From positions 67,954,001 through 68,018,000 of the forward strand of contig CM059432.1 of the NCBI GenBank assembly GCA_030390025.1: DNA of 64,000 bases. The letters are read 5' to 3'. The DNA is from Squalus acanthias. Taxonomy: Eukaryota. Both the position numbers and the translations under genes were made by a program. Below are positions 12,095 through 60,051 of the stretch, one piece after another; position 1 is the stretch's first letter, and the number at the start of each line of letters is the position of its first letter. Below the pieces are notes generated by a model. That model was given only the letters and a program-made list of their open reading frames with translations. It made no database searches and had not been told where the DNA came from.

Positions 12095-13008
12095 GTTAGC
12101 CTAATATCAGTAGTAGGGAAAATGCTAGAGTCTATTATAAAGGATGTGATAACAGGACACTTAGAAAATATCAACGGCATTAGACAAAGTCAACATGGTA
12201 TTATGAAAGGGAATGTGAAGTTATCCACTTCGGTAGGAAAAACAGAAAGGCAGAGTATTATTTAAATGGTGATAGATTGGGAAATGATAATGTACAAAGG
12301 GACCTGGGTGTCCTTGTACACCAGTCACTGAAAGCAAACATGCAGGTGCAGCAAGCAGTTAGGAAGGCAAATGGTATGTTGGCCTTCATTGCAAGAGGAT
12401 TTGAGTACAGGAGCAAGGACGTCTTACTACAGTTATACAGGGCCTTGGTGAGACCACACCTGGAGTACTGTGTGCAGTTTTGTTCTCCTTACCTAAGAAA
12501 GGATATACTTGCCATTGAGGGAGTGCAGCGAAGGTTCACCAGACAGATTCCTGGGATGGCAGGACTGTCGTATGAGGAGAGATTGGGTCGACTAGGCCTG
12601 TATTCACTAGAGTTTAGAAGAATGAGAGGGGATCTCATTGAAACGTATAAAATTCTGACAGGGCTAGACAGACTGGATGCAGGGAAGATGTTTCCCCTGG
12701 CTGGGGGGTCTAGAATGAGGGGTCACAGTCTCAGGATATGGGGTAGGACATTTAGGACTGAGATGAGGAGAAATTTCTTCACTCAGAGGGTGGTGAACCT
12801 GTGGAATTCTTTACCACAGAAGGCTGTGGAGGCCAAGTCACTGAATATATTTAAGAAGGAGATAGATTTCTAGACACAAAAGGCATCAAGGGGTATGGGG
12901 AGAGAGCGGGAATATGGTATTGAGATAGAGGATCAGCCATGATCATATTGAATGATGGAGCAGGCTCGAAGGGCCGAATGGCCTACTCCTGCTCCTATTT
13001 TTTTTTCT
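12095..13008 (+). mobile_element. CR1 LINE fragment with internal RT deletion
   Basis: VSLISVVGKMLESIIKD...QHG jumps near 12211 to CEVIHFG; C-terminal ORF2 at 12277-12873; CR1 tail. Confidence 0.9.
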
Positions 13009-14456
13009 AGCATTCAAGTCTTGGATGGTCTAGTCAGCGCCTAGTCTGATTCCACTGAGAAAATCAGCTGGTTAATTAAAAGTAGGCGGTCAATGGTGAT
13101 GCAGCAAGTGCACCAGTATGTTTGCATCAAAAGCAGAAGTATTTATTTGTGAAAGCTCACTGCAACGCACTGTGAAACTGTGCTGGAAATTTAATTAATC
13201 ATCAAGTGCTGCAAACTGGTGTGTCACTGCTAATAAGTTACACCTACTTAAAGGTGCTGAGTGCTAATGAGATTCTTAAGAAAAACACTCAAATCCTAAC
13301 TCTTGAACAGTGTATCTATCAAGATAGATTTCTCTGTCCTAATAGGCATAAAATATTTTCTGCAAATTTTTAAGGATGAATTTTAGAAAGAAGAATCTGA
13401 GAAAGTTTTTGGGCCAGAGGATATTTCTACCACCTTGCTCCTATGTTGTCCCCTTATTTCTCATTTCCTGAAGGCAATTAGTCTTGCTGGGGTACAGTTG
13501 CACCGATAACAGCAACGTCTGGTACATCATCATTCTTCATTTGTGAGCCCAGTCAGTGAATGTGGGCATCTATTCAATTGTGAGTGACATTGTAGCTGAC
13601 CCTATTCTCGTCCTCACCTGATGGTTGCATAGCAGAGGTCGTTAGGTACCAATCAGGACCAGAGATTCTGGCTGACTTTACCCCCCCGCCCACCCGACCT
13701 CCTGAGGGTGTTATATCACTTCCCACCCCCTGCCCATTCGATCTCCTGAGGGTGCTATATCACTTCCATCAGCACCACCCTAGCTAAAATCAGTTAATTT
13801 TGCACAGACCAAGGATCAGATCAAGAATCAGATTGGAGCCCTTTCTAGTCTGTAAGATTCAATACCACACCACACGTTTGGCCATTGCAGGAGCTTTCGA
13901 TAAATTTAATTTTATCACCAGGAATCAAATCGACTGTAATCCATATTCTGGTGGTGAAATGCCAGATCCAGACCATTAGACAGCCCCGGAAACTGTGTCA
14001 AAGCACTTCTTAATTTATCATATTCTTGAAATACACTAAATAATTTTAATTTGTTTGTAGTTTTAATGTTATGCAAATGGATACAACACTAGTTTAAAAT
14101 GAATTCTGGCAATCACAAACAAAATTACCTTGAACAGTAGTTATAGGCATACACAATATTAGCCCTGCTCTGAGTGGCCACAGGACTGAAAACTTGGGGA
14201 ATGAGAAGACAGTCTGGTGTTCCACTTGTGTGAGGGGGGTTTGGTAAATTAACTGGGGTGAGGGAAAGCAAACATACTATTGCTTTTATCAGTGGATCTT
14301 TGGAGCCTTTACAATCCTGACTGTTCATAAACCTCTGGCTTTTTTGTGGTTTTAAAAACAGCATTCTGTGTGGTTCTCTTCGCTTTAATGCTGCTCCAAA
14401 ATAAGTCTCAAAATTATGTATTCCAGGGAAAAGCTACAATTATTTAGAACTCTCAT

Positions 14457-14478
14457 TTTATTCAATAACATTTTTATT
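14457..14478 (-). terminator. Candidate oprk1 polyadenylation signals
   Basis: Two minus-strand AATAAA (14457-14462 and 14473-14478) at the end of ~1.4 kb of AT-rich non-repetitive sequence downstream of the stop. Confidence 0.3.
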
Positions 14479-15810
14479 TAATAACAATTTCACAAACATG
14501 TTCCAAATCATAAATTATTTCATGGCTATAAAAGTACCTGCAAATATTTTCTGACATCAAAATAGCCAACAGTTTGCAACACCAGAGAAAAAGAAATCGA
14601 ACAGATTTAAATAAAGCACACCCACAATTCTGAGCACTGATAAACAGCAAGAACATTGCCAGTCACATTATATACCACAAGTTGATTCTTTTACTTCAAT
14701 TAAGTGAGAAATATTTGAATATATGAATATGTTACACTATATTAATAGCAAAGATAAAATACTTAACATTTTTCTAAGCTTTTTAATTCACAGTCACTTC
14801 TGAATACACCTTGGGTTAAAAACAGAAAGTTGTAACAGAGCGTGAGACAAAGGTTCTATTTTACATAGTGGACAGAAAATTGTGATTTTCCTCCTGGCAG
14901 GTGAGTGGGGTTCCTGGCCATGAGTGCACGTTTGTAAAATTGGTCCGAGTAAGATTTCTGTCCATTTTGTTTAACCCTTTCTGTTGCATGTTATTTTACA
15001 AAATAAGGGATTTTGTTTTGTTGATCCAGACTGGATTGCCTTTTCCAAAGCCCGCTTTGTTATCTGAATCTCAGTTCTAGTACACAGACATTGACATTTC
15101 CTCCATGGTTGAGCCATATGTTCATTAATTGTGGCCGATGATCAAAGACTTTTGGTCTTAAACCTTATGCAAGAATTTTTTTTACAAGAGAAAGCATTTG
15201 GCTCTTGGTTTTTCTAAAATGGCATTCCACTCACTGCTTTTGGAACTTAATACATTCAATTTGTGTTTTTTTATATACTGGAAATGTGCAATATGTTTGA
15301 TGTATCTACACTGATATATTAGTAACAACACATTTCATGACATGTATGCTTTTGTGTATGATTGACCACAGACGGTTTCTTCTTTTAATCTGACTCAAGG
15401 TTCTCATTTAAGATTTGTAATTGTATTAAATCACAAAATGTCAGTTGTTTGTTGCCAATATGCAATGAAAGCATTTTTTGAAAAAAACATTGGAATCATA
15501 TAAGCAAAGACTCCAAATATATCCATTGCAGCACAGTCTCTGTGATATGCCTGCCACGTTAATTTGACATGCTCCATTTGCCAATGAAATGGGACTGTAA
15601 GTACAGCACTGTTTCAGAATCAATGCCAATTATCCAGTTTAGATGCTAATATGACAAGCATCTGCTTTTTTGTGCTGAAGATAAGAATATTAAAATGAAA
15701 CTCATTTTCCCGTGCATACTGATTTCTTATTGATGAGCACAGGCAAACCAAGTCACTGCATTTGTTATAATGCTAAATAGACCTCATTTTCTTGGTCAGC
15801 AGAATAAGAA

Positions 15811-15900
15811 TTAAACTGCAGAAGTAATTTGAGTCAGACCTAAATCCTGAACGTCATCTCTCGCTTGTGGCGAGAAAGATGACATTTCCACTGCTAGTCA
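15811..15900 (-). other. oprk1: Stop-codon readthrough cassette (TGA CTAG) and C-terminal extension of oprk1
   Basis: TGA-CTA-G followed by the open frame LAVEMSSFSPQARDDVQDLGLTQITSAV-TAA; hairpin at 15853-15883. Confidence 0.85.
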
Positions 15901-16424
15901 TACCTGCCGGTTTGCATTCCCTATGCTATTGCGAAACAATGTAGCATTCTGTGTGGTATTCCTTACTCTGTTGCTGGTCTGCAACTCCAGCCTCAACCCC
16001 GAGGAACAGCAAAAATCTTTGAAGCACCTTTTAAAATTTTCATCTAGAAAAGCATAGAGGATGGGGTTAAGGCTGCTGTTGGTATATCCAAGAGCTACCG
16101 AGAAATAATAGCAGGCAGATAATGCTGTGGTTTCTGGGATATTTGCTAAAGCTTTGACTAATACAAAAATGTGAATGGGAGTCCAACAGATGATAAAAAC
16201 TGCTACAACAATGAGGACCATCCGTGTGATTCGGCGTAAGTTTCTGTCTTTCTCTCTGGAGCCAGACAGTAGTCTCACACTCTTCAAACGCAAGATCATC
16301 AAGCTGTAGCATACAGAGATGATGAGAACTGGTATGACAAAGGCAAAGACAAAAACACAGATTTTCAGCACAGTGTCCCAGTACCAGTAGGGATGTGGGA
16401 ACTGCAACGCACATTCAACGATAC
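15898..16424 (-). CDS. oprk1: Kappa-type opioid receptor, coding exon 3 (ECL2 to C-terminus)
   Basis: Acceptor [69 protein letters not shown]. Spliced CDS is 263+353+527=1143 nt = 380 aa plus stop. Confidence 0.95.
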
Positions 16425-18011
16425 CTGTTGAATAAGAAAAACAAAAGTCAGCGGTTATGATGAAATCTACAATCAAACCTATTACAGCTAAACCTTGTTA
16501 ACTGAGATTGGTATCGTTTTATTTTTTTTTCAGATTATCTTCAGTCAAATATAAATAGTTATACTGGGAATTCAGTGGAATCAAGCTGTACCAAACATAT
16601 TATCCATGTAATTGCATGCCCGATTAACCTTGTTCTAATTAACAAACTGGAATATTAATAGGAAAATAGTACAGATCCTACAAGAAGACAGTATAATCAT
16701 TTTAGCAGTCTCTTTACGTATTGTGCTGAATTATAGTAAAAACCTTCAATTAAAAAAACCCACTGAACTGATGTGTGTTTAATGGTATGTAGCAGAGACC
16801 TGGTTCCATAAGACAGGCTTGGTAATTGACTATGCAAAAAAATATATCGTAATTCTGCTTGGCCTTCAGCTTTTTGTGTCAAATTCAATTGCCGCAACTT
16901 GTAACCAGGTGAAGGTGATTTGGAGACCAGCTGGCATGCAGGAAGTCAGCTGAAGATCAGCTTCAGTGTATTTCTGGTGAGCAGATGTAAAGTGGACATA
17001 TTTAGAAAATTACCTCCAGAAACATTATATAATTCTCTATGAAGTGATAAATGGTGACAATGTGAAAACTGGTTCTGGTGTCTTTCTCCTACTTAGATTT
17101 TTTCAAATAGACTGATTGACAGTTGTTGATAAGTTGCAACTGATATATATTGAAATTGTGCTACCTACTTATGGTTTACCAGTGAGTTAATTTCAAAATA
17201 TTGTGTTTCAGTTCTTGTTGCCAAGGGAACACTAGAATACTCTTATCCATAAAGGCCAGTGCCTGTAAAATCACAGGTGTCCAATTCTAGCGGTTTATGA
17301 TCTCACTGTTATTCTCACTAAAAGGGTGACTCATAAGTTTTATATTTTCACAAGGAGTAAAAATAGTCCTTGTTTTTCTGTTTACCTCTCCAAGTAATTA
17401 ATTCAGTTCTCACTTTCCTGTTTACCTCTACCAGCAAGTGATTTAGGAGTATGTCTTCCTCTGTTCACTAATCAAGAGAAAGTATAGAAGTGAGTATAAA
17501 GCACTGTTTTCCACTTTGTATCCATCATCTACATTTTCATTAAAATTAGTAGAGGAAAACATATGCTTTCGTCATTTATTTTGGAGCATTAATTAGATGG
17601 TGGGGAGCATGTGCCCAAATTCCCAATAGCAACGCTGGTGGACGAGGCTCTGTAAAGGGAATGCAATTTCGTAAAATTACTCCTTAAGTGTTCATACAGC
17701 AATATCACACAGCACAATTTCTAAGCTCATGCTACTTATCTAACATAACTATTACAGTGCTACAGATTAACATGAGCATTAAGGGTCTATGACATTTAAC
17801 CAAGCTAGACAAAGATAGATAAAACACTTGCTTAAATCAATTATAGCTGTATATTTTACATTCCCTCCTATGAGTTGAGGCATTGAGCATTACAGCTTAG
17901 ACTGGAAATTATTGATTCTGCACGCTGCAATTTCCTCAGAAAATCAGTTTTAATGGTAACTAAATTTTAAAGGACAAAGAGCAATGCTGAACACCATAGG
18001 AAAGAAGGATG

Positions 18012-18215
18012 CTATAAAACCGTCTCTCTACCTCTCGTTCCTCCTTTAAGACACTCTTTAAAACCTACCTCTTTGACCAAGCTTTTGGTCACCTGCCCTA
18101 ATTTCTCCTTATGTGGCTCGGTGCTAAGTTTTTTGTCTTTTAATACTCCTGTGAAGCGCCTTGGGACATTTTACTATGTTAAAGGCGCTATATAAATACA
18201 AGTTGTTGCTGTTGT
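18012..18215 (+). mobile_element. L2 LINE 3' end
   Basis: CCTTTAAGACACTC..AAAACCTACCTCTTTGACCAAGC...GTGAAGCGCCTTGGG...GGCGCTATATAAAT followed by a (GTT)n tail. Confidence 0.75.
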
Positions 18216-18381
18216 TTAATGACCATCAATGCTGCAAGGTGTTATGGGGATGAAGGCACAAAAACTGCAGCAAAATGATGTCTGCTCATCTGCTCTGAAG
18301 TGAGCAAGTGCTATACTCGTAACAGGTTGTCATGCAATTAGGCTAGTTCTGATTTTATTTTTGACTGCAATTATGTGCTTG

Positions 18382-18473
18382 AGTAATAGATTGAGTTAAC
18401 ATCTCTGAATATCTGATGTCAAGGGGAAATTTTTGAAATCAGATATTCAGAGATGTTAACTCAATCTATTACT
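18382..18473. repeat. Perfect 36-bp inverted repeat with 20-nt spacer
   Basis: AGTAATAGATTGAGTTAACATCTCTGAATATCTGAT (18382-18417) and its exact reverse complement (18438-18473). Confidence 0.95.
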
Positions 18474-19462
18474 GAGCAAGCATTCCAAGAGAAGTTCCTA
18501 TTTCCCATCTACATGCTGCCCCTCGGCGACATCATCAGAAGTTATGTGGAAAGGTTTTAAACATCTCAAGTTTCTACTCTTGATATTGTTGTCTGAGTTA
18601 AGAATTCCCAACCAGCGCTGTTCATGTATGAACACTTGGGGACTGATTATTGTCTCCCTACTGCCCAGTCTTTTGGTATGAACTGGGCAGTAGCAGGACA
18701 AAAATCACAAAGGAAATCAGCAACTTACCACCAGCAGCCCATTCATTAGCCTGCATTATCTTCAGTTGGGTTAATATCTAAAGTACACAGAGGAATTCAG
18801 TATAAATGTGCCAAGTACTCATACAAGGACAGTGCCAGTCAAGAAATATATTCTGAAGAAATAATTTTGGAACTGACTTGGCGTTTAGAAAGGTCTCTAG
18901 TTAGAAGTAACTTGTTTGAAGTTTCTCTTAGATCATAAATATTGCTATATATTTTATCTAAAATCTTTCCAAAAAACATTTTAATGGTGAATTTGTGTCC
19001 AAGATAAAAATAAAGATTTTTGTGCTAAGCTTCAATATCATGCATTCTCAGGTATAACGGAGGTCAGGGACAGGTTAAAGCTCCACCTATAGTGCCCTAA
19101 CAATGCACCTCAACCACAAGCACAGAAAAGATACCCCTAATGCACAGCTATAACATGTCCTTTTCTCAAAGCAGTCACCCTTACAGTCTTTCTGAGGAAA
19201 ACTACCAATTTATGCCAGAATTCTGGTTAGTGAAACCATGCCCAATAGTAACTGGGGATGAGGCTGATCTTACTCATTTTGTGGAGGACCCCAAAGCCAT
19301 TTGAGAAAAAAACTTTCCTCACGTTGGCCTGAGTTGGATTCTAACTCATGTCCCAGAAATAAAAGATCAATTCCTTAATCCACGTGCTACCCAGTCCCCT
19401 CTTTAAACTTATGTGATAGAATACAATACATAACAATTAGTTTAGATGAAGTTCACAAAGTG

Positions 19463-19918
19463 TTAGCTTTGGCTCATTGGTAGTACTCTTACCTCTGAGT
19501 CAAAAAGTTGTGGGTTCAAGCCCCATGCCAGAGACTTGAGCACACAATCTAGGTGGGCAGTTTAAGGGAGTGCTGCATTATTGGAGGTACCGGTTTTCAG
19601 ATGAGACGTTAAACCAAGACCCCATCTGCCCTCTCAGGTGGATGTAAAAGATCCCTTGGCACTATTCAAAGAAGAGCAAGGGAGTTCTCCCAGTGCTCTG
19701 CCGGACAATCAACAATCCCACAATCAACACCTAAAACAGATGATCTGGTCATTTATTTTGTTGCTGTTTGTGGGACTTTGCCGTGCGCAAATCAGATGAC
19801 TTGTTTCCTACATTACAACAGTGGTTACACTTCAAAAGTACTTTATTGCCTATAAAGCACTTCAGGGTGGTCTGAGGTTGTAAAGGCGCTATATAAATGC
19901 AAGTTCTTTCTTTTTTTA
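19463..19918 (+). mobile_element. tRNA-derived Deu-domain SINE (SacSINE1/AmnSINE1-like)
   Basis: A box TGGCTCATTGG, B box GGTTCAAGCC; core GATGAGACGTTAAACC...GGATGTAAAAGATCCC.TGGCACTATT; L2-type tail. Confidence 0.8.
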
Positions 19919-20135
19919 AATTACAGGAGAAACGTCATACAGGCATTAATTTGGACCAGAACCTTTTTTGCATATTCAATGTTTTACACTTCATTAAAAC
20001 TCATCAATAGGTGAATGATAGTCAGCAAAAAATTTAACGTGTAAAAATTAAATACGCTACAATAAAATTCAGACTTTTCTAATACTTTGTAACTACAGTA
20101 ATGATGTTGGCTTTGACTGCAGCTTCAATACTCAC

Positions 20136-20488
20136 CATCCCTTGTTCCAGTGGCCCCCAGCACTATAACAGGAATGCCAATAACTGAGGCAAGGAGCCAG
20201 ATGCAAACATTCATTACTTTTGCCTTTAATGGAGTGCGGAAGTCCAATGCCTTCACTGGATGGCACACAGCAATATATCGATCAACGCTCATCATTGTCA
20301 ACGTGAAAATGCTGGTAAACATGTTATAATAATCAATGGAGACCACTATTTTACACAGCACATCTCCAAATGGCCAGGACCCCATTAAATAGTCAGCACT
20401 CTGGAAAGGCATTGTGCTTGTTGCTAGAGCATCTGCTGCAGCAAGATTGAAAATATAGATATTGGTAGCTGTCTTCATCTTGGTGTGT
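20136..20488 (-). CDS. oprk1: Kappa-type opioid receptor, coding exon 2 (ICL1 to TM4)
   Basis: [16 protein letters not shown]...[40 protein letters not shown]. Acceptor TTTTTAG|A, donor G|GTGAGT, 353 nt; phases match the flanking exons. Confidence 0.95.
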
Positions 20489-21108
20489 CTAAAAAGAAAT
20501 ACATAAAGCTGTCTTAGTTCATTGCTGTGACCATTCATAGTCCATACAAAATGACGATTACAAGCAAAATAAAACCCAGCACTGGAATACATATCATTCA
20601 GAAGTTATGTGCCATTTGTTCAATAGATGTTTTCATTTATACAGATGCTGTGCCTATCTTAGATGCTAGGCAATTAAATATCAATTCTTTAACACCAACA
20701 CGTTGTGTCCTGCTCTCAAATATCAATTTGCTTGCTATGGTGGGCATAAAACATGGCCAATTCACAGAATATATGAATAGCATTCAACACTGGAAAATAC
20801 ACAAGCCAAACCAAACAAAATACAAGTAATTGTCAGCTTTTATTCAGTGTGTGGTGCAGTCAGTTGCTGATGATTCCATTAGTTAACTACTATTCACTAT
20901 AGTTAATACAAATAAAGTCGTGATTAACAAAGTACTTCTTATAAGGCATTCTGCTAAATTAATGTAGGCTTCTTCTCAGACTGTTAAACTTATAATAAGG
21001 TTTCTAATAGCTAATTTTCTAATAGTGAAGATTTTGAAATTCCTCTTTTAATGACACTTGCAGTCTTGCCTATTTTCTGCACTGTCGGGCCAAAGTCAAT
21101 TTCTCCTC

Positions 21109-23134: not shown

Positions 23135-26100
23135 TGTAATGTATTATCACATGGTTTGGTATGAGCATGCTCAGTTCGCTCTGGCCTAGTAATGCAAGCA
23201 CATAGACTAGCAACTCATCGTGTCTCTGTCCTTCATTTGTTCTACCCAAGTATATTACAGTTTGGCGATGAGGATGGGATCTCACAGCCATTTTTAAGGA
23301 TCATGGAAGGACAAAGTGTTCAACCTTCGAGTGGAGAAGTTTAAGGTGAATTTGTGACATCTAAACTGAATTTTTGCGATTTTTTACCGTTAATGCTGAT
23401 GCAGAATTGTCTGTGCTCTGCCTTCGCGTGTATGCACACACAGCAACAGCGGCGTTGATTCTCAGGTAAACAGGTAGTGTGCTGAGTCACTGTTCAACAG
23501 GATTGGGACAATCATGGCCGCACCTACGGGATTCATCGGAAGCCTCGGCATGTATGACCGAGCTCGCAAACCATTCAATTCTTACATTGAGCAGATGGAG
23601 ATGTTTTTTAGGGCCAATAACATTATTGAGACTGAAGGTGCAGATGGGAATGTTCATGCTTAAAATAAAGTAATTAGTGAATGGAAGAAAGCAATTTTTC
23701 TAATGACGATCGGGCCAGATGTCTACAGAACGTTGACAAACCTACTCGCACCAGGGAAAGCGAAGGATGCGTTGTTTGAAGATATTGTCGAGAAACTCGA
23801 GGACTATTTCGACCCAAAGCCATTAGAAATAGCAGAGAGCTATAAGTTTGGTACCAGAAACAATGAGAAACCATCAGTGAGTACATTGTAACTCTTAAGA
23901 ACCTGTCTTTGCATTGTAACTTCGGCACATTTTTGGATTGTGCATTGCGAGATAAGTTTGTATATGGACTGGTGGATGAGCGCACACAATCCAAGTTACT
24001 GAACACTCCGAACCGAACGTTTGACATAGCATGCAAAATTGCCCTATCGATGGAGATGGCGTCTAAGAATGCTAGGGAGCTCCATCCAACTCAAGTGACT
24101 AGTGCAGCTGAGGTCTACAGTCACAAAACCACCGCCAAACCTAAAGCTGTGAGACTAAGTCAAAAGCATGTTGCTGAGAGCAGTTCAGTGAATTGTTATC
24201 GCTGCAATGGAAATCATTCACCACAGCCCTGCCAATACAGAAATGTGAAGTGTTTTCACTGCCAGAAGCAAGGCCATATTTTAACAGCTTGCAGAGTTAG
24301 ATCTAAAGCAGGAAGTAAGAACCATTCTAGTGGCAATGCAAAGCAGCGACAACAAAAGGGAAGAGTTCACAATATTGAATTGATCACACCTGATATTGAA
24401 GAATTAGGCATCTACAGTATCTATGCCACTAGTGGCAACACTAGCAGTTGTGTGTTGGGAGTGAAGGTGCGATTTTCACACTAAGTGCAGTTGACAAAGA
24501 CTTTCCCATGAATGCAACTGAGATTGCGGATGAGACTCAAAAGGACTCAGTACTGAAAAGAGTGTATGAAAGCACCTAGAATGGATGGACTGATCAGTGT
24601 CTGGACACAGAATTGAAACCATTCCATAACCATCATACTGAATTGTCTTGTGAGCAAGGTTGTATCAAGTGGGGAAACAGAGTGGTGGTACCTACTTCTT
24701 TGAGAGATAGAATTCTGGGCGAACTTCATACTGAACATCCAGGGATCGCAAGTGTGAAATCAATTGCAAGAAGCTTTGTTTACTGGCCTGGATTGGACAG
24801 TGATCTTGAATCACTTGTCAGCAAATGCAGCATTTGCCAAAATTGCAGAAACAAACCACCCAAAACTCCACTACAACCCTGGTCATGGCCAAGTAGACAT
24901 TTTCAGAGAGTACATGTAGACTTCTGTGAGAAAGCAAATGATTATTTCCTGGTATTTGTAGATAGTCACTCAAAATGGATTGAAGTGAAACACATGGGTT
25001 CAAATACTACAACTGAACGAAAGCAAGCTGGCGGAAAATATAAAAACTAACTCCAAAAGCTTTTATAAGTATATCAAGAGGAAAAGACTGGTGAAAACCA
25101 AAGTTGGTCCATTGCAGTCAGATACGGGGGAATATATAATGGGAAATAAGGAAATGGCAGACCAACTAAATGCATACTTTGGGTCAGTCTTTACGAAGGA
25201 AGACACAAAAAACCTCCCTGGGATATCGGGAAAAATAGGGACATTGGCAAAGGAGGAACTGACGCAAATCAATATCTCTAAGGATATGGTGTTAAGGAAG
25301 CTAAAGGGATTGAAGGCGGACAAATCCCCAGGGCCTGATAACATGCATCCTAGGGTACTGAAGGAGGTGGCCCTAGAGATAGCGGATGCACTAAGCATGA
25401 TTTTTCAGAATTCATTAGACTCGGGAACAGTGCCCATGGATTGGAGGGTAGCTAACGTTACCCCACTATTCAAAAAGGGGGGTAGGGAAAAAGCAGGTAA
25501 TTACAGACCTGTAAGCCTTACATCAGTTGTGGGCAAAATGCTGGAGTCCATCATTAAGGATGAAATAGCCGAGCACTTAGCAAATGGGGACAGGATAGGA
25601 CAGAGTCAACATGGATTTACAAAGGGTAAATCGTGCTTGACTAATCTATTGGAATTTTTTGAGGGAGTAACTGGTAAAATAGATGGGGGAGAGCCAGTAG
25701 ATGTGGTGTACCTGGACTTCCAAAAGGCCTTCGATAAGGTCCCACATAAAAGATTAGCATGGAAAATTGAAGCTCATGGGATAAAGGGGAAAGTATTGAC
25801 GTGGATAGAGAACTGGCTGTCAGATAGAAAACAGAGAGTTGGAATAAACGGCTCATTTTCTGAATGGCAGGCAGTAACAAGTGGGGTACCACAGGGATCT
25901 GTCCTGGGTCCCCAGCTGTTCACAATTTATATTAATGACCTGGATCAGGGAGTCGAATGCAGCATTTCCAAATTTGCAGACGACACTAAACTAGGAGGGG
26001 GGGTGGGCTCAGAGGAGGAGACCAGGAAGCTCCAGAGCGATTTGGACAGACTGGGTGATTGGGCGGATAAATGGCAGATGCACTATAATGTGGACAAGTG

Positions 26101-27983
26101 CGAAGTTATCCACCTTGGGTGCAGGAACGGGAGGGCAAATTATTATTTAAATGGCAATAAATTGGGAGAGGGGGAAGTACAGAGAGACCTGGGTGTTCTT
26201 GTACACCAGTCACTGAAGGCGAGCATGCAGGTGCAACAGGCGGTCAAGAAGGCAAACGGTATGCTGGCCTTCATAGCAAGAGGGTTGGAATACAGGAACA
26301 GGGATACCTTGCTGCAGCTGTACAGGGCACTGGTGAGACCACACCTCGAGTACTGTGTACAGTTTTGGTCGCCTCATCTGAGGAAAGATGTTCTTGCCAT
26401 GGAGGGGGTGCAGCGGCGATTCACCAGGCTGATACCAGGAATGGCGGGATTGACCTATGAGGAGAGACTATGTAGTTTAGGGATGTACACACTGGAGTTT
26501 AGAAGATTGAGAGGGGACCTCATAGAAGTGTATAAAATTCTGACAGGTCTAGACAGATTAGATGCAGAAGGAATGTTTCCCTTGGCGGGTGAGAACAGAA
26601 CTAGAGGACATAATTTAAGGATAAGGGCTAAACCATTTAGGACAGAAATGAGGGGGAATTTCTTCACTCAGAGAGTGGTGAACCTGTGGAACTCATTGCC
26701 ACAGAGGGCAGTGTACGCCAGCTCATTAAATATATTTAAGAGGGAATTAGATATATTTCTACAGGCAAAAGGGGTTAAGGGTTACGGAGAGAAGGCGGGG
26801 ACGGGATACTGAATTGAAGGATCAGCCATGATCTCATTAAATGGCGGAGCGGGCTCGAGGGGCCGGATGGCCTACTCCTGCTCCTATCTTCTATGTATCT
26901 ATGTAGATGATTGCGGTCTATCTTCGCATGTCATGGCTTACCTGAAGAACTTGCTTCTGACAATGGACCTCAGTTCCGTTCTGCTCTATTCCAAGAGTTC
27001 ATGAAATGGAACGGTATCAAACATACTCTCATTCCACCGTATCATCCAGCTTCAAACAGAGCAGCCAAAAGGTCAGTCAGAATAGTGAAAGAAGCTCTCA
27101 AAAAGCAAGTGTTACAGGGTTTTTCGGGACTCAGCATGAAGCAACATTTGGTAAATTTCTTGCTGAAGTACAGAACTGCTCCGCACACTACAACTGGACA
27201 TACCCCAGCAGAACTCTTGATGAAGAAGCGATTGAGAACACGATTGAATCTTGTTCAACTGAATTTGGCCTCAAGTGTTGAACAGAAACAGTTGAGAGTC
27301 AGAAACGTTACTATGACACCAATCAGAAAGAGCGCAGTTTCAAACAAAACAAATGTGTTGGTGTTCTCAGTCCCCCTGGCAAGCCAAGTTCACACAAGTG
27401 GGATGTAGGAACCATAGTAGAGGTTGGTGGAACCAAGAGATATTTGGTTGAAATTGGTGACAAAATCCGATTTGTTCATGTAGATCAAATGATCTCTGCT
27501 AGAGATGAACCAAGACATGATCGTGAACCACTTGATCATGAACATATACATGAGTTTGACTCAGTTCAGACTTCAGTTACTGAAGTACCAGGTTCAAACA
27601 AGTCTGAGATAGAAACAGGATCATCTTTGAGTTTGGAACCAAAACAAATCAGCCCGAAAATTGGTTCAACACCAAAACCTTCTGTAAGGAGATCAGGAAG
27701 GCTCCGCAAACCAGTTATTAAACTGGATTTGTAGTTCATTTAAAAGAAAAAAAGCCAGGAGTTTTTGTTATGTGGTACATGTAATTCTGGGAAAGTTGGG
27801 ACCATAGTTTTGTTGTATTTGAGAGGGGAATGCATACTTTTTTTTAAGGGGGAAAGCAGTGTAATGTATTATCACATGGTTTGGTATGAGCATGCTCAGT
27901 TTGCTCTGGCCTAATAAACAACCACATGGACTAGCAACTCATCGTGTCTCTGTCCATCATTTGTTCTACCCAAGTATATTACA
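23135..27983 (+). mobile_element. Gypsy/Ty3 LTR retrotransposon (Mag-like), internally deleted
   Basis: LTRs 23135-23259 and 27860-27983 (TG..CA); 5-bp TSD GTCTC; PBS TGGCGATGAGGATGGGAT at 23263-23280 (tRNA-Ser type); polypurine tract 27846-27859; gag with two CCHC knuckles; integrase HHCC and core; protease, RT and RNase H absent. Confidence 0.95.
25021..26904 (+). mobile_element. Young 5'-truncated CR1 LINE inserted in the Gypsy integrase
   Basis: Uninterrupted 573-aa ORF (25091-26812) with a full RT domain; tail TTCTATGTATCTATGT; the integrase reads TTTER | VD..LRSIFACHGLPEE across it. Confidence 0.95.
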
Positions 27984-35692: not shown

Positions 35693-37402
35693 TACATACG
35701 AACATACGAATTAGGAGCAGGAGTAGGCCACTCGGCCCTTCGAGCCTGCTCCGCCATTCAATAAGATCATGGCTGATCCGATTACTCCACATTCCTGCCT
35801 ACCCCCGATAACTTTTCACCCCCTTGCTTATCAAGAATCTCTCTACCTCTGCCATAAAAATATTCAAAGACTCTGCTTCCACCGCCCTCTGAGGAAGAGA
35901 GTTCCAAAGACTCACGACCCTCTGAGAAAAAATTTCTCCTCATCTCTGTCTTAAATGGGTGACCCCTTATTTTTAAATAGTAACCCCTATTTCTAGATTC
36001 TCCCACAAGAGGAAACATCCTCTCCACATCCACCCTGTCCAGACCCCTCAGAATCTTATATGTTTCAATCAAGTCACCTCTTATTCTTCTAAACTCCAGC
36101 GGATACAAGCCTAGCCTGTCCAACCTTTCCTCATAAGACAACCCTCTCATTCCAGGTATTAGTCTAGTAAACCTTCTCTGAACTGCTTCCAACATATTTA
36201 CATCCTTCCTTAAATAAGGAGACCAATACTGTACACAGTACTACAGATGTGGTCTCACCAATGTCCTGTATAACAGAAGCATAACCTCCCTACTTTTGTA
36301 TTCAATTCCCCTCGCAATAAACGATAACATTCTGTTAGCTTTCCTAATTACTTGCTGTACCTGCATAGTAACCTTTTGCGATTCATGCACTAGAACACCC
36401 AGATCCCTCTGCATCTCAGAGCTCTGCAATCTCTCACCATTTAGATAATATGCTTCTTTTTTATTCTTCCTGCCAAAATGGACAACTTCACATTTTCCCA
36501 CATTATACTCCATTTGCCAGATCTTTGCCCACTCACTTAACTTATCTATATCCCTTTGTAGCCTCCTTATGTCCTCTTCACAATTTACTTTCCTACCTAT
36601 CTTTGTCTCATCAGCAAATTTAGCAACCATACCTTCGGTCCCTTCATCCAAGTCATTTATATAAATTGTAAAAAGTTGAGGCCCCAACACTGATCCCTGT
36701 GGTACACCACTCATTACATCTTGCCAATCAGAAAATGACCCATTTATGCCTACTCTCTGTTTCCTGTTAGCTAGCCAACCTTCTATCCATGCCAATATGT
36801 TACCCCCTACACCATGAGCTTTTATTTTCCACAATAACCTTTGATGTGGCACCTTATCAAATGCCTTCTGGAAATCTAAATACAGTACATACACCGGTTC
36901 CCCTTTATCCACAGCACATGTTACTTCCTCAAAGAACTCCAATAAATTGGTTAAACATGATTTCCCTTGCAGAAAACCATGTTGACTCTGCCTGATTACT
37001 TTGAACTCTTCTAAGTGCCCTGCTATAACATCTTTAATAATAGCTTCTAACATCTTCCCTATGACAGATGTTAAGCTAACTGGCCTGTAGTTTCCTGCTT
37101 TCTGTCTCCCTCCCTTTTTGAATAAAGGAGTTACATTCGCTATTTTCCAATCTAATGGAACCTTCCCCGAATCTAGGGAATTTTGGAAAATTAAAACCAA
37201 TGCATCAACTATCTCACTAACTTCTTTTAAGACCCTAGGATGAAGTCCATCAGGACCCGGGGACTTGTCAGCCCGCAGCTCCAACAATTTGCTCAGTACC
37301 ACTTCCCTGGTGATTATAATTTTCTTGAGTTCCTCCCTCCCTTCCATTTACTGATTTACAGCTATTTCTGGGATGTTACTTGTATCCTCTATAGTGAAGA
37401 CC
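35693..37402 (-). mobile_element. CR1 LINE nested in the older CR1
   Basis: 368-aa RT ORF (36241-37347) plus C-terminus; tail TTCGTATGTTCGTATG. Confidence 0.92.
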
Positions 37403-53842: not shown

Positions 53843-54105
53843 CTGACGATCACGTACATAACCAGACAGTTGCCCACCGAGCCCACCACAAAAATGACCG
53901 AGTAGACAGCAGTGATGATGATGGGGACCAGGCTGCCCATGGTGCCGTTTCTGTGAAAGTCAAGGAAGTCGGTGCTGTTTTCCCAATAGTAAGAAATGGG
54001 TGGGAAAGTGCTGTTTGGGATAACGCCAGGGCTACATTCGTCACAGGAGTGTAACATATACTTGGAACCCATGTCTTCCCTCGTAATCACCACTGGAGTA
54101 CCCAT
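53843..54105 (-). CDS. oprk1: Kappa-type opioid receptor, coding exon 1 (N-terminus and TM1)
   Basis: MGTPVV...NST/NST/NGT sequons...VPIIITAVYSVIFVVGSVGNCLVMYVIV(R). Ends AG|GTAAGA (phase 2). A polypyrimidine tract and AG acceptor lie just upstream (exon starts 54113). Confidence 0.93.
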
Positions 54106-55796: not shown

Positions 55797-58700
55797 GGCG
55801 CAATCTTTACCTTGGAGTCGGGTTGCATGCGTGCGGACCGTGTCGTGGATCGAGAACCCGAAGATTTGAACAGCGCGTTCTGCACTGCGCGTTTAACTCA
55901 ATGGCCCCAATTAAAACAGTCAAGCGCGTTTCCCAGCCCAATTAAATGGAGCGGGTCTGATGACATCACCAATGACTCGTTTTCAGCGCGGATATTTAAA
56001 GCAGCTCGCTCACATCTCATTTGAAAGTTGATGTAAGAGCGCATAAGGTGGTTCCCAGAGGTCTCTATAACGCAATAAAACTGATATAACTGTGGGTCAT
56101 GGAGACAAGACAGAGGGCAGCACCAAGATTCACCAATGCCTCCCTGGAAGTTCTGGTGCAGGCAGTAAAAGCACGCAGGGAAGTCCTCTTTCCTGGCGAT
56201 CGCCGAAAATGACCACCCAAAGAGACAAAAAGGGCATGGCTGGAGATCGTAGAGGAGGTCAGTAGCAGGCATGTCATGAGGAGGATGTGGCTCAAGAGCC
56301 GGAAAAGATTCAATGATCTCATGAGGTCAGGAAAGATGAGTGCAATGCCACACTCACCTTCATCCTGATGAGCCTGTCACCACATCCCCATCACTCTGCC
56401 TTCCCAAGCCTGCTCCTGCACATCATTCCTCACGCCAGCCTACCTTGCAGGTCCACCCATCCCTCTCTGTCTATGTACCTACTCACATCCCCATCTGACT
56501 AACCACCACTGATGCTCACCCTCATCCTAATGCAACCATAGCAAGTAACACCACAGAAGGAGGCCATTTGGCAACGTCACACCACTCCCTCATAGTCACC
56601 CTCTACAGTCCTTACACTCATTCCATCACTCTCACTCAAAGTTCTCTTCTTTCCCTCCTTGCAGGAGAAGAGAGCCACAACAACAGGGAGAGGGAGAGAA
56701 CCGGAGGTGGCCCTCCAGTCTTCAGTCATTTGACTCCAGCAGAGGAGGAGGCCCTAGAGATCTCTGGAGTTGCAGAGCTGCTGGTGGTGGGAGATGGAGA
56801 GAGGGGGACCTCCCAGCAACCCGGTGACAGAATTACATCTCATACAGCCACTTGGCATACAACAGTCACTCATATGGTGACTGATGTCAGCATCCAGTGA
56901 AATGTCATCATGTGCATAATGATAACGTTACCCATTCTTATTATAAGACTTCTAATTCATCTCTTTACTCTCCCACAGGTCCATCAAAAGCACCCCCCCC
57001 CCCCCACCCCCACCCCACCATTGTCCAGCTGGAGGAGGAAGACAACTCCGCAGAGGAAGCTCCATTCTCAGAGGGTGCAGCATCAGCAGACCCATGCACA
57101 GCCAGCACCAGCGCAGATACACACACCTCGGTGGGTCCTGTGTGAGATAGAGTAGTGTTGTCATCTGATGTCACTCACATCACAAGTGACAAGAGCCTTT
57201 GGTGTTGACAGGGACAGCAGTGGAGAGTCCTTGCCGGAGAGCACAGGACACTCCAAGCTCTACTGAGCTGTATGCAGATGCTAAACTTCGGCGACCATCG
57301 AGAAAGAGGGTGATCTTGAGGGGCAGCAACAATTGCACGAGGCTCTGCCAGCTTTTGCAGCCGCGGTGTGTGAAAATGTATAGAAAACGGAGGAGTCCAT
57401 CTCCAACATGAGCACCACCATCTCGCAAGCAATAGTGGTGTGGGCTGTTCCATGGAAAGGATGGCCAACTGCATGGAGCAGCAAATGCGCCAGTCCAACA
57501 AGAACATGCTTGCTGTGGACAACAGATGGCAGCTGCTCATTGACCTCATCTCGAGGAGAGATATAAACGTAGACTTGGGCGTTCATCACCCCACTGATGT
57601 GTAGCAAGGTGTTCTCCAGCTCCTTGCTAGCAGGGAAGTGCGGGTGGCCCATGAGAGGGATAATGTTGAGAGGGGACAATGAAGTGAGGGCTCTTCTCAA
57701 AGCGTTCATACTTCACCCCTGTTGCCTCCCCCTCAGTCAGACCCCCACATGGTTCCCCGAATCCTGATGGCTGAGTCTGCCCCTGCACAGTTGCAGGAGG
57801 AGCAGTCTTTGGCGGGGCCCTCACAGGCTCCAAAACCCAGAGGATGTCCACCAAAAGTGTCAAAGCAGTCGTAGCAGGGAAGTGAGCAGCCTGCCTCCAC
57901 CTCCGCTGAAGCCACAGGGGTTGGACCTCTTGGAAGCACGTTGAAAAGAAAAAAGACACAATCCTAGATGCACAATGGTATTCACATGGGTGTATGAAAA
58001 AATGTTTGTGATAAGTTTCAGTTCTATTTATGACGCACATAAATTTATTTCTTTGCACCACTTTCTGGTCTTGTCCATTTTTGCCTGCTACCTGGGAAGT
58101 GGCCTTGTCACTTGGAGTGAATGGTGAGACATGACTTAACCTCGAGCAATGGGGGTTTGGGTGAGAGGAATGGCTTGGTCATTGTAGGGCTGCTTTGTGG
58201 TGTTGTTGGGGGGGTGGAGAACTTAGTACAGTATGTGGCAGCCATATGGGTGCACTGGAATAAGTTAAAATAAATCTGGCCATTATGAGGCCATCCCGGG
58301 CCTCCCGGGCAGCAATGTACACCACTGCTGCTGCCATCTCCACCTCAGATTCCTCCTTCTCCTCCTCCTCATCTTCCGCCTGTTCCTCCTCCTCCTCTGA
58401 AGAGGCTGTGTGCTCTGCGGCTTGCTCCTCCTGCAGCTCCAATCCTTGCTGCTATGCTATGTTGTGCAGCGCGCAGCAAACGACGATAATTCTGGAGACC
58501 CTGGCTGGTGTGTACTGAAGGGCTGCTCCAGATCTGTCAAGGCATCTGAAGCGCATCTTCATCATGCCAATTGCTTGCTCAATGACACATCTGGTGGACA
58601 TGTGGCTGTCATTATAATGCTCCTCAGCCTCAGTACTTGGCCTCCTCAATGACGTTATCAGCCACATCTTCAGTGGATAGCCCTTGTCTCCAAGTAGCCA

Positions 58701-60051
58701 GCCGGTAAGTTTGTTTGGAGCTGCGGATGGGTGGCCTGACGCAGCACAAAAGAGTCATGACAACTGCTAGGGAATCTGGCACACACATGCATGATCATCT
58801 TTTTATGGTTGCAGATGAGCTGCACTTTGAGGGAGTGGACGTGCTTGTGGTTCACAAACACTCCTGGGTGATGTGGGGGGTGCTTTGAAGGCCACATGTT
58901 TGCAGTCGATGATGCCCTGAACCTGTGGGAAGCCAGCCAGAGCTGCAAAGCCGAGCACCCGCTCATTAACACTTGCTTCATCAGTTGCAAAGTTTAAATA
59001 ATTTGCTGACTTGTGAAACATGGCATCGGTCACCTGGGTGATGCATCTGTGTGCGGCCGACTGCGAGATCCTGCAAATGTCTGCTGCAGATCCCTGGAAG
59101 GAGCCTGAGGTGAAGAAGTTGAGGACGATGGGGACCTTGACAGCCACTGGTAAGGCGTGTCCACCAGGTCCTCTGGGCAGCAGGTCTTGTTCCAGCAAGC
59201 TACAAATGTCTGCGATGACCTGGCATGATAGCCTGAGCCTCCTTTAGCACTGCTGCTCAGTCATGTCCAGGAAGCTCATCCTCTGCCTGTATACCCTGTG
59301 TTGGGTGAATCACCTCTGGTGCAGTGCAGCCCTGTGCTGACCCCCTCTCTCTTGTGGAGCATCAGGTCGTTGAGGAGAAGACTGCTGTTGTGGTTGCTGC
59401 TGCTGCTGGTGTTTTGGCTGCTGCTGGTGTTTTGGTTGCTGCTGGTGTTGGTGCTGGGGCTTATCTTGGTCTGATTCTGAGATCCAAGGTAAGACAGCAT
59501 AAGTGGCACCCATGCTGATGTAATAGATGGCAGGTAAAGTGGAGATCAGAGGACCAATCCCTCAATGTTCTGATAGTGACTAACAATGTGGTGAGATGCC
59601 CTCCGAGGTTGCAGAAATTACCTGCAAACTCCTGACAACTAAATCTCTGCACTAAATGGAGTCAGCAAGAGCCTTTCCATTAGGCAAGGAAGCAGTGTAA
59701 TGTGTGAGTATTTATGTGTTTTTGCCAGCTGTCAATTAATAAACTCGTACAATGGCCACTGAACTTCCGCCTCCCCTTCACAGGCGAGGTTCCCGAGGTG
59801 CGTGAATCCCGTGCGCAAGAAGTTAATGCCAAAACCTGAGGTTAAAAAGTCTCTTAATGGTCTCTCAACAAGTATTTAAGTACTTCAATGAGGTCGCCCG
59901 CCTCTCCCGAGCGGGTCCATGGTGCGCTGGGCAACGTGCCCGAATTAAATGCGGAAGTCGGCGGGTTCCCGACGCGCTGGCAATTTCCGCGATTTTTACT
60001 GCTGACCCGCCCCCAAACCCATATGCAGGGGGACTGGGTAAATTCCAGTGT
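55797..60051. mobile_element. Second full-length two-gene Harbinger, decayed, upstream of oprk1
   Basis: Myb gene on + (ATG 56099, exon 2 56665-56823, exon 3 from 56979); transposase on - (ATG 59513 to about 58260; [33 protein letters not shown]); termini degenerate and approximate. Confidence 0.85.

Follow-up and report, generated by a model that had tools for sequence, protein, structure and literature searches.

A probable stop codon readthrough signal and a conserved 28-codon extension closing the kappa opioid receptor gene of a shark

The 3' end of an opioid receptor gene in the shark Squalus acanthias, where the stop codon TGA is followed by CTAG and an open frame, raises the question whether stop codon readthrough of the kappa opioid receptor extends to cartilaginous fishes. 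UGA-CUAG readthrough is carried by OPRK1, OPRL1, AQP4 and MAPK10 (Loughran 2014; PMC4132726), the same four genes that the first-pass annotation of this DNA had listed. For OPRK1 the readthrough isoform has been published for human and 'throughout vertebrates', with a range from mammals to bony fishes given in the available part of the main text, and readthrough had been argued to be older than the divergence of OPRK1 and OPRL1 (PMC4132726). The isoform had been called hidden for the present locus, but it was not hidden to the field, to which it was already presented in PMC4132726. In the human OPRK1 context readthrough amounts to ~13% (PMC4132726), 4-5% (PMC12233894) or 1.4-1.9% (bioRxiv 10.64898/2026.07.14.738498), figures that vary with the reporter. 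For human OPRK1, 12 nt of 3' sequence suffice for readthrough, and the full-length readthrough protein was not resolved. A literature search on readthrough in cartilaginous fishes, sharks or lampreys, in which subscription journals were thinly covered, returned no paper on OPRK1 readthrough in sharks, and the available portions of PMC5513072 and PMC11546610 contained nothing further on the tail.

The gene itself consists of three coding exons within the window, i.e. the whole 64-kb stretch of DNA that was analysed, and its spliced coding sequence of 1143 nt encodes 380 amino acids with one stop. The product shares 95.5% identity with proteins of Heptranchias and Pristiophorus. In a tree of 32 rows (IQ-TREE), comprising kappa and mu receptors with true delta or nociceptin rows absent, the shark protein fell within a chondrichthyan clade (support 99/97) beside the kappa clade of bony vertebrates (98/95), and mu receptors were separated from both (100/100). 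The closeness to kappa relative to delta and nociceptin rests on scores against PDB structures rather than on the tree: exon 2 scored highest with kappa (215 bits), followed by delta (206), mu (199) and nociceptin (174), and exon 3 scored equally with kappa and mu (262 bits each), ahead of nociceptin (217) and delta (215). Judged by these sequence comparisons, the gene is the kappa opioid receptor, the orthologue of OPRK1, and the identity originally assigned to it is borne out by the tree and the PDB scores. Some shark orthologues carry the NCBI label 'delta-type-like'. Extracellular loops 2 and 3 of the shark receptor (16100-16424, minus strand) are more similar to mu than to mammalian kappa, as are the corresponding lungfish and sturgeon rows; these mu-like loops may be ancestral, may account for the 'delta-like' labelling and may have consequences for ligand selectivity.

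The open reading frames of the window belong mostly to pieces of retroelements and transposons, and by eye no neighbouring gene was noticed among them. The first coding intron spans 33 kb (20489-53842) and is packed with pieces of LINE-type reverse transcriptase (e.g. 24989-26812 and 36241-37347). These pieces were named by eye from translations, as were a stretch resembling gag and integrase of an LTR element (23867-27734) and fragments of a Harbinger-like transposase (e.g. 58452-59243). An inverted repeat in intron 2 (18387-18469) matched several Rfam hairpins below threshold, on either strand.

Table 1. Features of the oprk1 locus, in coordinates of the window.
Feature	Position	Strand	Basis
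oprk1 coding exon 1 (ATG at 54105)	53843..54105	-	N-terminus matches shark orthologues P0005 and P0160
oprk1 coding exon 2	20136..20488	-	AG/GT boundaries; PDB matches
oprk1 coding exon 3, end ...NRQV-TGA (...CAG GTA TGA)	15898..16424	-	Sequence, splicing
TGA-CTAG readthrough signal (putative), preceded by GTA	15894..15900	-	Sequence; context as for OPRK1 in PMC4132726
28-codon readthrough extension (predicted) LAVEMSSFSPQARDDVQDLGLTQITSAV	15814..15897	-	Homology to amniote-type tails; no indel in 4/4 runs
Predicted 15-bp hairpin, 11 nt after TGA, possible stimulator	15850..15886	-	-18.8 kcal/mol fold of first 50 nt
S-A-V at the C-terminus, match to class I PDZ consensus and predicted ligand	15814..15822	-	T-A-V in five distinct complete homologous tails
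Second stop TAA	15811..15813	-	Sequence; W at this place in homologues from gene calls with TGA read as W

The stop of this gene lies on the minus strand, with TGA at 15900-15898 and CTAG at 15897-15894; the succession of TGA-CTAG, 28 sense codons and TAA that had been described without naming a strand was confirmed there, and the 29 amino acids attributed to the extension correspond to the 28 codons plus the recoded stop. Across both strands of the window, CTAG comes directly after six of 2601 TGA triplets (0.23%); at least 28 open codons follow 24% of these triplets, and exactly 28 follow 1.0%. Since nearly a quarter of the TGA triplets are followed by open runs at least this long, the open run is unremarkable on its own and needs homology. 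What is above chance, on the evidence of sequence, is the motif at a true opioid receptor stop together with the ungapped homology of the tail.

Homologous tails are exposed in amniote-type OPRK1 records by gene calls in which TGA is translated as Trp (here 'amniote-type' and 'mammal-type' are labels taken from the likeness of the coding part to named proteins). Among 178 proteins screened, 14 besides the window's own two fit the pattern of the tail start, a pattern that favours similar tails, and these 14 represent four distinct tails, each of 28 residues and each ending in T-A-V and then W, a residue that we read as a second TGA. In ungapped comparison the four tails are identical to the shark tail at 17/28, 19/28, 16/28 and 19/28 positions, scores that were each reached by none of 100,000 shuffles, and the replacements between shark and amniotes include F/Y, S/T, D/E and L/I. 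The mammal-type tail thus has the length and the similarity that the first-pass annotation had given for the mammalian extension, and its identity of 17/28 compares with 10/29 in the ordinary C-terminal tail of the same pair (Fisher p=0.065). Two more records came from a further search, a tail of 27 residues that ends in T-A-V and a fragment with an early end (P0179, P0181). An apparent extended homologue with 97% coverage, P0073, was rejected as a fusion to an unrelated domain, and a word search with a 44-residue tail as the sole query gave ten candidates, none of which was scored. No curated readthrough isoform and no tail from a bony fish, an amphibian or another shark was present among the matches listed (120 of 504 in one search, 8 in a second and 5 in a third); this blank is uninformative, because standard annotations end at the TGA. 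Since the tail is shared by the shark and amniotes, the signal and the tail are no younger than the last ancestor common to jawed vertebrates, and the proposed origin before the split of cartilaginous and bony fishes is therefore upheld by homology.

The frame and the stop context were also compared in relatives, using four of the 24 coded runs listed (among them X1, X16 and X18) and the 40 of 104 substitution rows listed. Frame-breaking changes in related chondrichthyans had been named beforehand as evidence that would count against the extension, and zero indels were found in the tail: in each of the four runs a contig crosses it with no gap, and all 11 indel rows lie at 15480-15793, beyond the second stop, with none in the tail or the coding sequence. 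These rows represent about 8 indel events, for which the chance of finding zero in 90 nt is ~0.14 and alone not significant. The X1 contig, taken as RNA by guess, matches 15450-16425 with neither a difference nor a gap, covering exon 3, the stop, the tail and UTR, and it ends at the exon-3 acceptor, as expected of a spliced transcript; X16 and X18, also guessed to be RNA, continue into the intron like DNA. If its assumed orientation is right, the X1 contig continues for ~660 nt past 15450 (14792-15450, minus strand), and its end lies close to the ATTAAA at 14787, a possible polyadenylation site.

Organisms G and H (runs X16 and X18) share a change at 15894, which turns the context into TGA-CTAA and replaces Ala with Thr, and a change at 15852, which replaces Val with Phe, as found at this place in the mammal-type tail; both keep a tail without indels. 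Organism F has neither change and retains the G of CTAG, so that TGA-CTAA occurs in two of the three divergent organisms compared. Three short X18 contigs cover the S-A-V codons and the second stop without a difference. Substitutions amounted to 2-5 in the 90 nt of the tail versus 25-28 in 353 nt of UTR (p 0.06-0.8, relatives among sharks only). The two tail substitutions listed in X16 (Ala to Thr, Val to Phe) are both nonsynonymous and so gave no coding-type substitution pattern within sharks.

Downstream of the stop, a stable hairpin was predicted post hoc. The four most stable of 694 sliding windows along the spliced coding sequence and 1 kb of UTR overlap this hairpin, and synonymous recodings of the first 60 nt folded as well in only 33/1500 and 47/1500 cases; over the whole tail the effect was weaker (138/1500 and 79/1500). 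In G and H, a U-G pair close to the base of the hairpin is disrupted by the change at 15852, with no partner change among the substitutions listed. The post hoc finding, the sufficiency of 12 nt in the human gene and the broken pair in relatives all count against a role of the hairpin, and we consider it unlikely that it acts in sharks as a second stimulator letting UGA-CUAA lineages keep the isoform.

Shark oprk1 ends in TGA-CTAG with a conserved 28-codon tail, and our analysis suggests, with a probability of about 0.88, that a minority of ribosomes read through this stop to produce a receptor longer by 29 residues. By analogy with the human UGA-CUAG genes, CUAG would promote decoding of the UGA by a near-cognate tRNA in a few percent of events. 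The inserted residue would be Trp or Arg, as measured for the UGA of MDH1 (PMC5133446), and translation past the UGA would end at the TAA. The added 29 residues would be cytoplasmic and bring Ser/Thr sites, and the ordinary end R-Q-V would be replaced by S-A-V, which is predicted to be a PDZ ligand of class I and might alter how that pool of receptors is scaffolded or recycled. Several observations count against readthrough in sharks: G and H are without the G of CUAG, both tail substitutions listed in relatives are nonsynonymous, positions -9/-8 are CG in the shark and not AA as in mammals (PMC12233894), one homologous tail has 27 residues and another record ends early, and even in human the full-length OPRK1 readthrough protein was not resolved.

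Other explanations of the conserved tail were judged less likely than readthrough. The 90 nt might have been preserved as an RNA element, either a structure of the 3' UTR or a protein-binding site, with the peptide similarity a by-product of slow DNA change; the stable fold predicted for the first 50 nt and the few substitutions in shark relatives, of which the two listed are both nonsynonymous, agree with such a view. However, length, frame, position of the second stop and conservative exchanges are all kept between shark and amniotes, the best-conserved residues (the last 11) fall outside the hairpin, Rfam gave zero matches over the tail, and readthrough has been measured in human (PMC4132726), which makes an RNA element alone very improbable. 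It is more doubtful still that readthrough worked in the common ancestor and is now decaying in some cartilaginous fishes, with the signal left intact in this species. The TGA-CTAA of G and H, though not of F, fits this idea when set against the CUAG described as universal in OPRK1 (PMC4132726), but the abstract of the same paper calls the initial six out of seven bases universal and no more, and the tails of G and H are free of indels, with the X18 contigs matching the S-A-V codons and the second stop. Moreover, although 764 of 765 variants of CUAG lowered readthrough in human reporters, the single exception was CUAA in MAPK10, which raised it (10.64898/2026.07.14.738498). Natural CUAA variants offer a test case for the rules of the motif.

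The slightest chance is given to routes that would reach the tail without readthrough, i.e. splicing that bypasses the stop, A-to-I editing of the UGA or selenocysteine insertion, in favour of which nothing was found. The X1 contig, if it is RNA as guessed, runs across the stop without a difference, a gap or a joint, which argues against splicing and editing except as a minor form, since contigs drop rare variants. In 12500-21000, Rfam gave six weak matches up to E 1, none of them to a SECIS family. Readthrough at TGA-CTAG remains the preferred reading of the shark tail.

What the extension might add to the receptor is suggested by its end. The class I PDZ consensus is X-S/T-X-hydrophobic-COOH, and the ordinary end of the human kappa receptor was described as being without a PDZ motif and not recruiting PSD-95 (PMC3653948). 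The tail end matches this consensus with S-A-V in the shark and T-A-V in five distinct homologues, an S/T exchange at position -2, so that the ligand originally proposed for S-A-V stands as a conserved consensus match and a putative ligand. The ordinary ends of 11 chondrichthyan rows read RQV, RPV, REV or QEV, with none of class I. NHERF, a PDZ protein, reportedly interacts with the kappa receptor through the receptor's ordinary C-terminus. PMC3907859 cites a study whose title names an interaction between these two proteins. No paper linking the OPRK1 tail to PDZ binding was found, and the term 'PDZ' is absent from PMC4132726 and from the available text of 10.64898/2026.07.14.738498. With an S/T exchange at -2 and conservation of the terminal residues, the evidence points to the C-terminus as the portion of the tail that functions. 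We tentatively suggest, as a possibility short of an even chance, that readthrough acts as a switch from a PDZ-less kappa receptor to a minor class I PDZ pool that would be scaffolded or recycled differently, in all jawed vertebrates including humans. PDZ binding provides a concrete hypothesis for what this tail does in a receptor targeted by analgesic drugs; we did not find a role of the tail described.

Comparison with known systems places the shark case close to published readthrough. Class I PDZ ligands of other G protein-coupled receptors (PMC3653948) have the consensus in common with the shark tail, although here the ligand would exist on the readthrough minority only. Stems 7-8 nt after the UGA stimulate viral readthrough (Firth et al. 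2011; PMC3159437), and the shark resembles alphaviruses and Drosophila kelch in having a stem of at least 12 pairs shortly after the UGA, which there causes an up to ~10-fold increase; in contrast to those long-range stems with 7-8 nt spacers and support from covariation, the shark stem is a predicted local hairpin at 11 nt. OPRL1, AQP4, MAPK10 and MDH1 share the stop context with shark oprk1 while the genes differ. The tail of MDH1 has a demonstrated function as a peroxisomal signal (PMC5133446), whereas none was found for the OPRK1 tail in the papers examined, some of them available in part. Of the last eight residues of the tail, OPRL1 has six in common with OPRK1 (PMC4132726), and the AQP4 tail has already been followed back to cartilaginous fishes. 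The closest counterpart is OPRK1 itself (PMC4132726; 10.64898/2026.07.14.738498): the shark context has all features given for it, with the orthologous gene, UGA-CUAG, GUA as the last codon, a homologous tail of 28 residues and the strongest conservation at the C-terminus. The shark differs from published OPRK1 in its second stop TAA, in S-A-V for T-A-V, in CG for AA at -9/-8, in a predicted hairpin where no 3' hairpin was reported as conserved, and in the CUAA of two relatives. Although the age was already expected from the comparison of OPRK1 with OPRL1 and the tail, which is real and well conserved, was largely foreseen by the 2014 paper (PMC4132726), the shark gene fills the cartilaginous-fish gap: it is an orthologue of the known OPRK1 readthrough case and widens its main-text range, from mammals to bony fishes, by one node to cartilaginous fishes.
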